This document shows positions 13,340-58,742 of a stretch of 64,000 bases of DNA, in pieces. Made by a program: the position numbers and the translations under genes. How positions within the stretch are numbered: the first letter of the stretch is position 1; each line of letters starts with the position of its first letter. The notes under the pieces were generated by a model. It was not told the DNA's origin, did no database searches, and saw nothing but the letters and a program-made list of their open reading frames with translations. The DNA is from Pristiophorus japonicus (lineage: Eukaryota), in NCBI RefSeq assembly GCF_044704955.1, contig NC_091980.1:130386001-130450000 (forward strand). The letters are read 5' to 3'.

Positions 13340-13465
13340 CCCCTCTCCTTTGTTAATTGGTGCCTCAATTCAGGGAAGATTCCTGATTGGCTCTGAGGGA
13401 TTGTCAATCATCATTGGTGATGTCATACCCTGTTTGAATGCAGCTGTTCCAATAGTATAAATACA
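13340..13465 (+). promoter_or_regulatory. Ferritin B promoter: three inverted CCAAT boxes and TATA (paralogue ~37630-37755)
   Basis: ATTGG at 13356, 13386 and 13413; TATAAAT at 13456-13462, 76 nt before the ATG. Confidence 0.75.
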
Positions 13466-13531
13466 GGAGCTTGTACAAGACAGTATGAGTTTCAGAACTG
13501 TGCAGAGGATAGTGAAATATAGATAGTGAAG

Positions 13532-16136
13532 ATGGCCTCCCAAGTGTGTCAGAACTACCACAAGGACTGTGAGGCTGCTGTCAACAAGCAGATCAACATG
13601 GAGCTCTGTTCCTCCTATGTTTATCTCTCCATGGTGAGTTGTGTATTCCTTGTTGCTGCATTCTGAAAAGTTGTTAATTCTCCAGTTCAATGAATTGGCT
13701 TTATGTTGTATTCCTCTGGACTTCCTTCCCTGGGGGAGCAGAATCTTTGGGCAGTGAGAACTTCAGGTGTGTAATACAGGGGTTCTTGTTGAGTTCATGG
13801 ACTGCTCCCGACAGCAGCTGCCCTCTATTGAGGTTTAATATTGGAAACCAGCTCAGCTGCTGCCTGAGTGTGTGACAGAAGAGCACAAACCTGGTTAGGG
13901 GCCTGTTGCCCTGAAACAATGTTCAGTTTCAGGTGGGGGACTGCAGTGAGTGACATGTGGGTAGGTTCTCACTAGTGCTCTCATTAATTGGAGGTGATGT
14001 ACTGAGAATCCTGCTGTTGGAGCCCTGCTCACTGCTGAGATCTCTTGCACTATTGTTGTGTAAACTACTGGAGTGGAGGATTTTTCTCACTCCATGTCCA
14101 AACTTTGATTAGAATGGAAGAATCATCATTTCTATAATGCCTTTCACTACCTTGGAATATCCCAAGTGCTTTGTAGCCAATGAAGGAGTTAAGTGTAGTT
14201 ACCTGTTATGTGGGAAATGCAGCAGCCAATTAGTGCACAGGATGCTCCCACAAACTGAAATGAGATAATGATCAGATCATCTGTTTTCATGGTGTTGGTT
14301 GAGGGATAAATATTAGCCAGGACACTGCAGAGAGCTCCCTGCAGTAGTATTTAGAACATGGCGAAGGCTTGAGGAACCAATGGCTGACTCCTGTCATTCA
14401 CTCAGATCATTGCTAATCTTGTACCTCAACTCCACCTCCTGCACTGTCCCCATATCCTTTGCTATCCAAAAGTCTATTGCTCTTGAATATACTCTGACTG
14501 GAATTCTCTACTCCAGGAGTTGTGGAGGCTCAAAGAGTCATCACATTGAGTTTAGAAATTCCTCCTCATCTCAGTCCTCAATGACCCCTGGTTCTTGACT
14601 GTCCAGCAAGGGGAACCATCCTCCCTGCATCCAATCCTTCAAGTCCTGTAAGAATTTTGTACATTCCTAATGACCTCACCTCTCATCCATCGAACCTTGA
14701 GAATAGAGGCTCAGTCTGCTCAATCTCTCCTCCTTGATCTTTCACATGCACCTGATGACTGACACACTCTTGTGTGAATGACCAGAAAGTAGAGGAGGTA
14801 TTGCTTATCCAGGAGTAGAATTTAGTTTGACTGGACATTAAATATAATCCTGAACTTTAGTTTTATATGTTCAACCAGCAACGGAAAAACTTTCATCGTA
14901 CTAATGGGGAGCTGAGGCTCAACTCCAATTGATGAAGTCAATGGCATTTTGCTAGTTTGCAAATGCTGTCTATCTTTTAAGAATTCATTCACTCGGGGGG
15001 GAAAAATAACTCTTGCATTGTATATGAAAATCAAGGTCTAAATAGGCTGTCTTAATTTCTCTCTGCAGTCGTTCTACTTTGACCGGGATGATGTTGCCCT
15101 GTGTCACTTTGCTGAGTTCTTCAAGGAGCAGTCACATGAGGAACGTGAGCATGCTGAGAAACTGATGCAATTCCAGAATCGCCGTGGAGGATGGATCATC
15201 TTGTCTGACATCAAGGTTTGGTTCAATTATTTAGTGGCCTTCTGTCTGGATACCCTTCGACCTGATTGATTCAAATACCTCCTAAAGCAATTGATTTCAT
15301 GGTTGTGGTAGTGGAATTCAGTCATTCTATATTCCTGTGACATTGTTTATGGTAAAATGGACTTCTGGTTGCTTTTTTTAAATCCTATTTTCCTTTGTAT
15401 TGTCTTTTGTATTTTGTTTGTTCCATTGTAAGTGAACTGCCTATGAATTTCCTCTTCAGAAACCAGAGCAGGATGAGTGGAGCAATGGTCTGGATGCGAT
15501 GCAGAGAGCTCTGCAGATGGAGAAGAATGTGAACCAGAGTCTGCTGGATCTGCACAAAATCTCCACTGGGAGCACTGACCCTCATGTAAGTTCCTCATGT
15601 GGGTTTCTGGGCAACTTGGAGGTGGTGGAACATTGCTATCCTTGAGCTGTTTCAAAAGTGCTCCATGCCCAATAGCTTTGTTTTTAAGAGGGGGGGGGGT
15701 GGTCTCTCTTGGGTTCTTCAGGGGGTGGGGGAGAGGACCATGAAGTTGGCCTACTGTGGACATTGAGACATAAATGGGTCCCAATGTTTCCAGGATCTAA
15801 GCTCACATTGTACAGTAGCTACTGGATCATTGGAGCAAATGTACATCAATTTCAATTGCCCTACCTGATCCTTCTCCACTCTGAATTAAAATCCTAACTT
15901 TGGGGGGTGGGTGGGGGGGGGGATGCTCTGAGCCTTGATATCTGCTACTGGCCATAACTCATTTCCCTCTTCTCTTTCAGTTGTGTGACTTCCTGGAGAC
16001 CCACTACTTGGATGAACAGGTCAAGATGATCAAGAAGCTTGGAAATCACATCACCAACCTGAAGAGACTGGGAGCCCCTGAGAATGGCATGGGAGTGTAC
16101 CTTTTTGACAAGCACACTTTAGGGGAGAGTGACTAA
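13532..16136 (+). CDS. Ferritin copy B, complete 176 aa; exons 13532-13633, 15069-15215, 15460-15585, 15981-16136
   Basis: Starts [34 protein letters not shown]; 102+147+126+156 = 531 nt, open, all GT-AG. TATAAAT at 13456-13462 and AATAAA at 16252-16257. Ferroxidase E24, E59, H62, E104, Q138 retained (Met = 1). Confidence 0.95.
14125..14342 (-). mobile_element. Deu-domain SINE fragment in intron 1 of B (paralogue ~38420-38632 in D)
   Basis: GGTTGAGGGATAAATATTAGCCAGGACAC and ATAATGATCAGATCATCTGTTTT are the reverse complement of blocks in the 58085 SINE. Confidence 0.7.
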
Positions 16137-17889
16137 ACTGACTGGGATCAAGCTTTGTGTTTAGTACTTGCATTTATATAATCAGGCCCATATACTGTCG
16201 GGAATGAAGGCTTGTGACTTTGTGCAAAAAGAGCTGAAACCCACAACAGTAAATAAACTGTTTAACATTGGGCTGTGTTTTGTCACCTTGTAAATTTGAG
16301 TGGTTACTTATTTTTCATTTAACATAACTTGATTTCCATCAAACAAGAATTACACTGACCTGTGCAACATTTATATGGGATTCAGTCCTATGAAATGTGT
16401 TTTCCCCTTGTGTAATGTCTATGTATTGACTGGGCCATTCAGGCACCTGTTATAAGATCTAAAATGTTCAATGGTGTGTTTGGACAACTGACAGTCCCAT
16501 GGCATATTGGCCCAGTGCCCAAAAGTCTGGGCAGAGGTATGTATTGATAAGGTACAGAGATGTTTAGGAAGGCATGTCTAGAGCTTGGGACTGATAAGCT
16601 GTATCCAATGATCTGCCTTTGTACAAATGACAATTCAATCCAACAAGATGTAACATCTGCTAAACTCAGGGCCAATTTGCCAGTAATTCATTGTTGCACC
16701 ATTTCAGTCCAATGAAGAAAAAGTCCTGGATTAGCTTCCTAGTTAGTCTATCTGCCTCGTGAATGAACAGCAGTTTGTATTCAATAGCTGCAACAGATCC
16801 TCTTCAGTTATGCAGGTCGTTCAGTAATGGGACTCATCACTGCTGCTTTAGGCTTGCTGTTAAACTTTGTAGGCAGAAAAGCAATATCTCAGCACACTGA
16901 ACTCTGGGCACTACAATTGGGTGAGGAGGGAAAGCAACAGCTGGCATTAGCTTGCTGTCATAGCTTCAGTGCTTCGTGTGGATACCCTAGTCGTTCTTGG
17001 ACAGCTTCTCTTCCGTCTGCTCCCCTAATGGTTGAATAACTTGCCAACACAACCTCCATTCAAACATGAATAAGGTATTGCAAGACTAACGATACTCCAA
17101 CGACATTTAATACTTGGGGAAGGTGTAAATGTATTTAATTCCACAAAGCAAAAGGAACAAGATGTTAAACCGATTTCTGGCCACAATGCCGAAGTACTCA
17201 ATTTATAAGCCCATCAATTTTTTTTTTTTTGTTAGTAATGAAATTCACAGTGGTACTATCACCCTGGATTCGATCTCCATTTCTCTCCTCCGTGGCTATG
17301 AATGGATACAAATGGTATTGCTGCAGCTCCAATAATCCAGTATTTACTAGTTATTTTTAGTAATTTAACTGTGTTGAGTGCAATTAAATAGCCATGTACA
17401 GACATTCCAGGTTAATGTCTTGGCAACACTCCAGCGCCTTTTGGCTATCGATGTTACAAAATGTCATATATTGATGAGCCACAGTTCCACGAGTTGGCCT
17501 GGGTTTGCGTGCTGATGGGTTTGATAGCTTCATGTATCAACAAATCTCCAGCTCACTCGATGTGAAACTTTACAGGTGCTCGTGTTTTAAGAATTACTTA
17601 CAATTTACAGCTCAGGAAAAAGACCATTTGGGCCAACTGGACCATGCTGTGGTTTATGTTCCATGTGAAACTTGTCCCACCCCACTTCATCTAGACCTAT
17701 TAGCATATCCTTCTATTCCTTTCTCCTTGTGTTTATGTAGCTTTCCCTTAAATGCATCTATGCTCTTTGCATTCAGAGTTATTACTGCGGGTAGCTCAGT
17801 AAACGCACCGCTGCTGCTGTGGATTTTCTGTTCAGCTGTGTGGGTAAAGAAGTGAGTAACAGCTATAAAGATCCGCAATGTTTGAGCTC

Positions 17890-58111: not shown

Positions 58112-58352
58112 GTACCATCTTTCAGATGAGATGCGAGGCTGTCTGCTCTCTTAGGTGGACGTAAAAATTCTCAGGTTGCTATTTTGAAGAAGCGCAGGGA
58201 GTGTTCTCTCCGGTGTCCTTGATAATATTTATCCCGCAACCAAAACAGATTATCTGGTCATTAACATACTGCTGAACTTGATTGGTTGTAAAGAGCTTTG
58301 AGACATCCTGAGGCCATGAAAGGGCTATATAAATGGAATTCTTTCTTCTTTC
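58085..58352 (+). mobile_element. Deu-domain SINE body (SacSINE1/AmnSINE1-like)
   Basis: CTTTCAGATGAGA...GGTGGACGTAAAA...CCGGTGTCCTTGATAATATTTATCCC...AACAGATTATCTGGTCATT and a GCTATATAAAT...(TTC)n tail; recognised from memory of the family. Confidence 0.7.
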
Positions 58353-58702
58353 TAAGAGGATAAACGTTCCCAAGCCTCCTTTAAGTTTAAGTTTCTTTCA
58401 ACATCTTTTGTGAAGTTGCAATCTTTATTGGTTGTGCCTTTTGAAAAAGGGGCCCATGCTTGACTTTTAATTGACAATTGCCGCCGACAAAAAGAAGAGT
58501 CAGCCAAAGATGCACATTCTTCAAAATTCATGACTGGCTCTGGGAGTCATGGCCCCTCCTCCCTTTACTTGATTGGTGCTCTGACAGAGGCTGCAACTTG
58601 TGATTGGGTATTGAGGAATGACACTCACAGCTAGACTGTCCCGCCCTGGATTATCCAGCAGTGTAAAGACAGGAGTTTGAAAATAGGTAACTCTCAGCTT
58701 CA

Positions 58703-58721
58703 TGCTTCAACAAGGCTCAGA
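58703..58721 (+). promoter_or_regulatory. Degenerate, non-functional iron-responsive element remnant in the 5' UTR of F
   Basis: TGCTTCAACAAGGCTCAGA versus the canonical ferritin IRE core TGCTTCAACAGTGCTTGGA (15/19), in the expected cap-proximal position. Confidence 0.6.
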
Positions 58722-58742
58722 TTTTTGGAAAAGCAAATTAGG

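Follow-up and report, generated by a model that had tools for sequence, protein, structure and literature searches.

Do the tandemly repeated ferritin genes of a shark still answer to iron through the 5′ leaders of their messenger RNAs? The question is raised by a repeat-rich vertebrate stretch of 64,000 nt from the sawshark Pristiophorus japonicus (contig NC_091980.1, positions 130,386,001 to 130,450,000; hereafter the window), in which six four-exon ferritin genes, designated A to F, lie in tandem on the plus strand. A first-pass annotation of this sequence had proposed a ferritin family uncoupled from iron, since no visible leader seemed to hold a functional iron-responsive element (IRE), the hairpin through which iron regulatory proteins (IRPs) act. 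In the present analysis the five visible leaders appear to lack a functional IRE, and the loss of IRP control is well supported in silico. In addition, the decayed remains of such an element were recognized in the leader of copy F.

The window is part of the published shark tandem ferritin array (the 'FTH1b' expansion), as judged by gene structure and by a clade shared with array proteins of nine other shark genera. This expansion has been proposed as a link among iron control, ferroptosis and extreme lifespan. If the array mRNAs escape IRP repression, the locus would be one of bulk production and not an iron-responsive regulator, which changes the reading of the expansion.

Promoters and Leaders of the Ferritin Copies

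Exons and splice sites of the ferritin copies were placed from the sequence. Exon 1 lies within the window for five copies, with start codons at positions 13532 (B), 23828 (C), 37823 (D), 50410 (E) and 58743 (F). Copies B (13532..16136; exons 13532-13633, 15069-15215, 15460-15585, and 15981-16136) and C (23828..32800; exons 23828-23929, 31453-31599, 32211-32336, and 32645-32800) are intact genes of 176 amino acids, in line with the open frames noted for them before.

The distance between the TATA box and the start codon was found to be 76 nt in B and D, 83 nt in C, 82 nt in E and 81 nt in F, which matches the earlier estimate of about 75–85 nt. B, C and D have a TATAAA box, whereas that of E and F is degenerate. 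All five promoters are collinear in the alignment, with clustered CCAAT boxes and a TATA box. The promoter of copy B (13356..13462, plus strand) has ATTGG at 13356, 13386 and 13413, CCAAT at 13449 and TATAAA at 13456, so that four CCAAT/ATTGG boxes were observed compared to approximately 1.1 expected per 300 nt. Promoter and leader of copy C (23589..23827, plus strand) contain CCAAT at 23589, ATTGG at 23617, 23656 and 23685, and TATAAA at 23745. For the remaining copies, each taken together with its promoter on the plus strand, the box is located at 37747 in D (37647..40373), at 50328 in E (50174..54699) and at 58662 in F (58572..61959).

Leader starts were predicted as the TATA position plus about 30 nt, which gives copy B a short putative leader at 13486..13531. 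The C-F identity is 0.81 in the promoter and 0.62 in the leader, the promoters thus being kept better than the leaders.

Two old promoter lineages, B/D and A/C/E/F, alternate along the array; the B-type promoter is also recognizable in gene models of Heptranchias and Cetorhinus. Upstream ATGs occur in four leaders (13485, 23774, 50356 and 58702), three of them at the predicted cap.

Search for Iron-Responsive Elements in the Leaders

The 400 nt before each of the five start codons were scanned for the pattern C-N5-CAGUGH-N5 with at least three upper-stem pairs, and no such hairpin was found (0 of 5). As controls, 61 ferritin loci from metagenomes were used, which apparently derive from invertebrates or other non-shark eukaryotes, none being recognizably shark. 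The same scan identified the pattern with five of five pairs in 22 of these loci.

With the stem rules of SIREs (PMC2896125), i.e., a 5-bp upper stem above a bulged C with at most one mismatch, the leaders of B and D gave no hairpin with any hexaloop. One-mismatch hairpins were found in C (four), E (four) and F (one), none of them with a CAG loop, and a canonical match was obtained in 28 of the 61 control loci. A CAGWGH hexaloop on a stem was absent from all five leaders, which do not fold better than shuffled sequence.

A custom covariance model was trained on 16 control IREs. It gave no match in any leader; its 16 matches in the window at E ≤ 10 were headed by a minus-strand hit of 13.2 bits (E 0.1). 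Among the 45 control loci outside the training set, 38 were scored, the remaining seven having no 5′ end, and 23 of the 38 were identified at E < 0.01 (six as near-copies of training sequences). Rfam likewise reported no IRE in the window or in the leader of F, a weak negative given its poor sensitivity on the controls: at the gathering threshold it found none in 20 control loci, although six of them have one, and a real control IRE scored only 18.8 bits. The silence of Rfam therefore adds little. Pattern scan, SIREs-type rules and covariance model, all with positive controls, agree with the first-pass annotation that no C-N5-CAGUGH-N5 hairpin can be built in B to F, and the searches it had proposed as a check (SIREs rules, Rfam) revealed no IRE in the leaders.

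The leaders of D, E and F, all probable pseudogenes, account for three of the five without an IRE, and hence the functional argument is borne by B and C alone. If transcribed, these two copies would very probably be independent of the IRPs. From the earlier proposal of an iron-uncoupled family, the lack of IRE control has held up.

A Decayed Iron-Responsive Element in Copy F

In the leader of copy F a decayed IRE was identified at 58699..58730 (plus strand), where 16 of 20 profile positions match. The profile was obtained by back-translation of P0073 and P0074, two over-extended mammalian FTH1 models which read through the IRE in two frames, and it agrees with the Rfam consensus. Position 58699 is the only one to reach 16 among approximately 128,000 positions on both strands. 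This score was attained by 1 of 5,000 shuffles, and in a gapped test by 3 of 400.

The bulged C (C8) is found at 58705 and the 5′ upper stem is intact. The loop sequence is CAAGGC, the stem is disrupted on its 3′ side, and an insertion of 4 nt is present; besides this insertion, 7 of 28 positions are mismatched. The relic does not fold as an IRE, its upper stem pairing in three of five positions. It begins about 7 nt past the cap predicted from the TATA box (plus 30 nt), and the translation of the F leader is SCFNKA, compared to SCFNSA in mammalian IREs. The upstream ATG of F at 58702 arose within the relic and opens an out-of-frame reading frame across exon 1.

The leaders of C and E align at the same site. 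A faint relic in C at 23782-23812 is not significant (44 of 400 shuffles reach its score), and the same holds for the test in E (219 of 400), B (218 of 400) and D (153 of 400).

The relic makes it most likely that the IRE was lost from exon 1 and did not move to a hidden exon. With exon 1 thus identified as the place of the ancestral IRE, a concealed exon farther upstream that bears one is unlikely.

Gene Models of Other Sharks

Ten array-type annotation models with N-terminal extensions were analyzed by back-translation. For nine of them no back-translation yields a canonical IRE, and P0018 permits only a form with four of five pairs, about 50 codons upstream. The same test recovers the IRE in those H models of mammals and mackerel whose extension is long enough to include it. 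P0097 (Cetorhinus, basking shark) and P0137 (Heptranchias, sevengill) match the translated B promoter and therefore span TATA to ATG, although the TATA box of P0137 looks mutated. Only these two demonstrably cross this interval, and both are gene models, not cDNAs. On this thin evidence, the absence of the IRE may reach beyond the sawshark. In the supplement files of the spiny dogfish, no ferritin match was obtained in the 10 of 20 files searched.

Coding Sequences, Selection, and Intron Content

The encoded proteins contain the ferritin domain PF00210 (130.9 bits), and the alignment of array proteins with H and M chains of solved structure is ungapped over the full length. The seven residues which we take to form the ferroxidase centre are all found in B, C, D and E and in 114 of 127 array proteins. 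Glu62 is retained in all five copies bearing exon 1 and in 122 of the 127 proteins. At position 141 of P0007, which presumably adjoins ferroxidase site B, a Met occurs in 125 of 127 array proteins and Ala, Ser or Gly in other ferritins.

Copy A is represented by exons 2 to 4, which are open (2638..8452, plus strand; 2638-2784, 7862-7987, and 8297-8452); the expected end of its exon 1 lies about 135 nt before the first base of the window. It matches P0007/P0222 in 141 of 142 residues and contains retrotransposon remnants in intron 2. Copy B has an AATAAA signal at 16252 and is identical in 172 of 176 residues to P0019, another P. japonicus protein, while copy C has AATAAG as its polyadenylation signal and is identical to P0012 of P. 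japonicus over all 176 residues. The ratio of nonsynonymous to synonymous substitutions (dN/dS) is 0.21 for B-C, 0.20 for A-B and 0.16 for A-C. The open copies A, B and C are under purifying selection.

Copy D has AT in place of GT at the intron-1 donor and several radical changes, with a dN/dS of 0.30–0.73 across its pairs, and is a probable pseudogene. Copies E and F look dead as well: E carries three internal stop codons, and in F a 9-nt deletion in exon 1, a stop codon in exon 3 and a 2-nt deletion at the start of exon 4 were found.

The synonymous distance (dS) in the exons is 0.15–0.18 while intron 3 is only 70–74% identical, which suggests homogenization of exons within the array. Over flanks and introns in general the identity is 55–74%, and synonymous sites differ by 0.11–0.18. 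The clustering of copies by lineage, together with exons that are more alike than introns, fits turnover with homogenization.

Intron 1 of copy C contains an intact long interspersed nuclear element (LINE) in antisense orientation (25880..30519, minus strand). It consists of ORF1, which is GDSL esterase-like (28864-29811), ORF2 with endonuclease and reverse transcriptase (968 amino acids; 25880-28786), and a tandem repeat of an 83-bp unit at its 5′ end (29979-30519). It is putatively of the CR1 type, by analogy with LINEs that have an esterase ORF1. It is not present in the sister copies A and E, and it may be young and may affect the expression of C.

Relationship to Other Ferritins

Ten shark genera yielded homologues of the array type; the 90% clusters, in which species are pooled, have up to 180 members. 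In the tree, the copies of the window are grouped with array proteins of nine other shark genera. Together with one protein of Callorhinchus, the array forms a clade (97/92) separate from the H and L chains and the M chains of bony vertebrates, from a single-copy chondrichthyan paralogue and from an N-terminally extended pair. Shark fth1a groups with the H chains (93/96), and the window copies lie outside this H clade. In one tree they are not inside the 12-row M clade, but the deep branching is unstable and differs between two trees. The expansion is retained in all sampled shark orders, and no array-type ray protein was found among the matches listed (the 120 best of 341 matches and of 2281 matches).

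The single-copy ferritin clade is common to sharks and rays (100/98; P0254, P0255, P0262, P0266, P0286, and P0293). It is distinct from both fth1a and the array and is located on the chromosome of the array in several sharks. The extended pair, P0062 (Heptranchias) and P0084/P0085 (Cetorhinus), has a basic, acid-free N-terminal extension of 55–61 amino acids, which looks like a presequence of mitochondrial type; it is annotated on contigs equal in length to those that hold the array. Four vertebrate-type ferritin fragments (P0227, P0345, P0283, and P0309) are filed under the names of Salmonella, Aeromonas and Yersinia on contigs below 1 kb and are probably host contamination in the public records. 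Scans for ferritin gave one weak bacterial locus in genome contigs and nothing in viral contigs.

Residues Aligned to Human Ala19 and Arg23

The residue aligned to human Arg23 is an Arg in none of 146 array proteins (138 Lys, 7 Gln, and 1 Glu), and Ala19 is replaced by Asp in 113 of the 146. Both residues are kept in all H chains of cartilaginous fish (20 of 20) and in all proteins of the single-copy type (24 of 24). Binding of NCOA4 has been described to require Arg23 and an open cleft at Ala19 (PMC4592949, PMC11076521).

The change at Arg23 points in the same direction as the loss of the IRE, but is a lead only. The mutant R23L still bound NCOA4 in cells, and R23K was not among the mutants in the available text of these papers (PMC4592949, PMC11076521). 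Lys keeps the aliphatic chain, and few, sub-stoichiometric normal H subunits are enough to target a cage. Moreover, three of four turtle M chains are also without Arg, and Lys is found in 52 of 54 invertebrate loci, in a search whose query was biased towards Lys.

A doubly uncoupled array ferritin, with IRP-free synthesis through loss of the IRE and NCOA4-free turnover, might serve as a dedicated maternal store of iron in the large egg of sharks and form an independent vertebrate counterpart of snail yolk ferritin. We regard this extension as doubtful. If it were true, neither longevity nor a flexible control of ferroptosis would have much bearing on the expansion, which runs to tens or hundreds of copies.

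A Probable Iron-Uncoupled Ferritin and Its Alternatives

The full picture that we consider on balance probable is that of an IRE-less, transcription-controlled array ferritin with a storage role in the ovary. The array would be a chondrichthyan paralogue lineage apart from the housekeeping H chain, and its ancestor would have carried, in exon 1, an ordinary IRE close to the cap, which later decayed. The live copies (B, C and probably A) would encode a ferroxidase-competent cytosolic ferritin, the amount of which would be set by copy number and the CCAAT/TATA promoter and not by IRP repression. Its most likely use would be in the ovary (oocyte or follicle), where ferritin would be needed ahead of the iron supply, and would consist in loading iron in bulk or in oxidative protection. 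Iron-regulated housekeeping would be left to two single-copy genes, fth1a and the second paralogue, both of which we infer to carry IREs.

For the ovarian role in P. japonicus we argue by analogy with another shark: in the Greenland shark, the homologous cluster was found to be ovary-specific by RNA-seq (Sahm 2024, bioRxiv 10.1101/2024.09.09.611499). Of the specialized roles suggested in the first-pass annotation (germ line, egg, immune or antioxidant function), a reproductive one gains from this result. No evidence of expression was drawn from NCBI names such as 'oocyte isoform-like', as they vary at random among near-identical copies.

The same ovarian signal could have an immune source. The shark ovary is enclosed in the lymphomyeloid (immune) epigonal organ (PMC5568229), and an IRE-less array induced at the level of transcription in epigonal and blood leukocytes could serve iron withholding or antioxidant defence. 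This appears unlikely, since the expression of the cluster is called ovary-specific (Sahm 2024), and a simple pattern search of the 400 nt preceding each copy revealed no sequence resembling an antioxidant-responsive element (ARE). Somewhat less likely still is an incidental loss of the IRE, in which the array would be a birth-and-death cloud, its copies dying or expressed weakly and their leaders drifting freely, without any selected iron-uncoupled function. Three of the six window copies are broken, the TATA box is degenerate in E and F, and the low dN/dS could have been inherited by conversion from a few live copies, given the dS of 0.15–0.18 beside introns 3 that are 70–74% identical. However, the intact copies B and C are also without an IRE, the promoters are conserved above the leaders (C-F 0.81 compared to 0.62), and every shark order sampled retains the expansion. 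The absence of the IRE also extends to the Heptranchias and Cetorhinus models, and more than 85% of the Greenland shark copies are full length (Sahm 2024).

Translational regulation by iron could persist through an upstream non-coding exon with an IRE, an alternative promoter or a non-canonical IRP site, which we consider highly improbable. The start sites are predicted only, and weak AG sites with a pyrimidine content of 0.65–0.76 occur near the TATA boxes of C, D, E and F. On the plus strand, one-mismatch hairpins with a canonical loop were found elsewhere in the window at 6218, 18539 and 63799, the second of them 5.3 kb upstream of C. These three are not shared between copies, though, and lie within repeat-derived DNA. 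In copy B, the 130 nt that precede the ATG contain no acceptor-like AG, and the pyrimidine content of 18 real acceptors is 0.59–0.94. The relic in F, as described above, places the ancestral IRE in exon 1.

Several points weigh against an IRE-less ovarian storage ferritin. The one-mismatch hairpins of C and E have non-IRE loops, but the 16 loops known from SELEX are not formally excluded for these two leaders. The only significant relic sits in a pseudogene, and the decay of its IRE before the death of F is only suggested, as part of the decay may be post-mortem: the probability of at least 7 changes in 28 nt is 0.0015 on half the A-F synonymous distance and 0.05–0.18 on full distances. With exons that look homogenized, dS understates the age. 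Finally, some copies are transcribed in fin and blood (Yang 2026, PNAS, PMC13214024), and since in addition the epigonal organ wraps the ovary, an 'ovary' signal need not mean the oocyte.

If the proposed picture is true, the array would be a rare vertebrate lineage of intron-containing, catalytically intact ferritins without a highly conserved RNA element, with its decay caught in a relic.

Comparison with Known Ferritin Systems

The locus is not the undescribed system for which it had been a candidate, since the shark expansion has been published twice and IRE-less ferritins are known elsewhere. For the Greenland shark 155 and 179 ferritin copies were reported, in clusters syntenic with the white shark (Sahm 2024). 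Furthermore, 59 FTH1b copies were described, and sharks were reported to exceed rays and elephant fish in copy number (Yang 2026). Like the window, the array of both studies consists of tandem multi-copy four-exon ferritins which are mostly full length. The expansion was interpreted as a capacity for flexible iron regulation and ferritinophagy (Yang 2026), whereas the loss of the IRE and the missing Arg23 would point the opposite way.

The word 'iron' does not occur in the available text of Sahm (2024), nor do 'IRE' and 'iron-responsive' in the available main text of Yang (2026) or 'iron-responsive' and 'UTR' in five of its supplements. No report of IRE loss in shark ferritins was found in the literature searched, which left most subscription journals outside its scope; within that literature the loss in the array, with its relic, appears to be unreported.

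The window copies share four exons, the ferritin domain and the H-type ferroxidase centre with vertebrate FTH1/FTL (RF00037), and F keeps a relic of the IRE of these genes. They differ from FTH1/FTL in having no intact IRE, a short leader, a clade apart from fth1a and Lys or Gln in place of Arg23.

FTMT is outside IRE/IRP control, and FTHL17, of which the mouse has six genes at a single locus, is a germ-cell ferritin that, with E62K, has no ferroxidase activity (PMC7760355). FTMT is intronless and mitochondrial, whereas the shark copies have three introns and encode 176 amino acids from the usual Met without a presequence. In contrast to FTHL17, where Glu62 is replaced by Lys, they keep E62.

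The yolk ferritin of the snails Lymnaea and Biomphalaria is IRE-less and egg-linked, and exists beside IRE-bearing soma ferritins (PMC10799875). It has a signal peptide and a 42-amino-acid insertion and is made in the digestive gland (PMC10799875). The shark proteins have neither feature and, unlike snail yolk ferritin, would stay in the cell that produces them.

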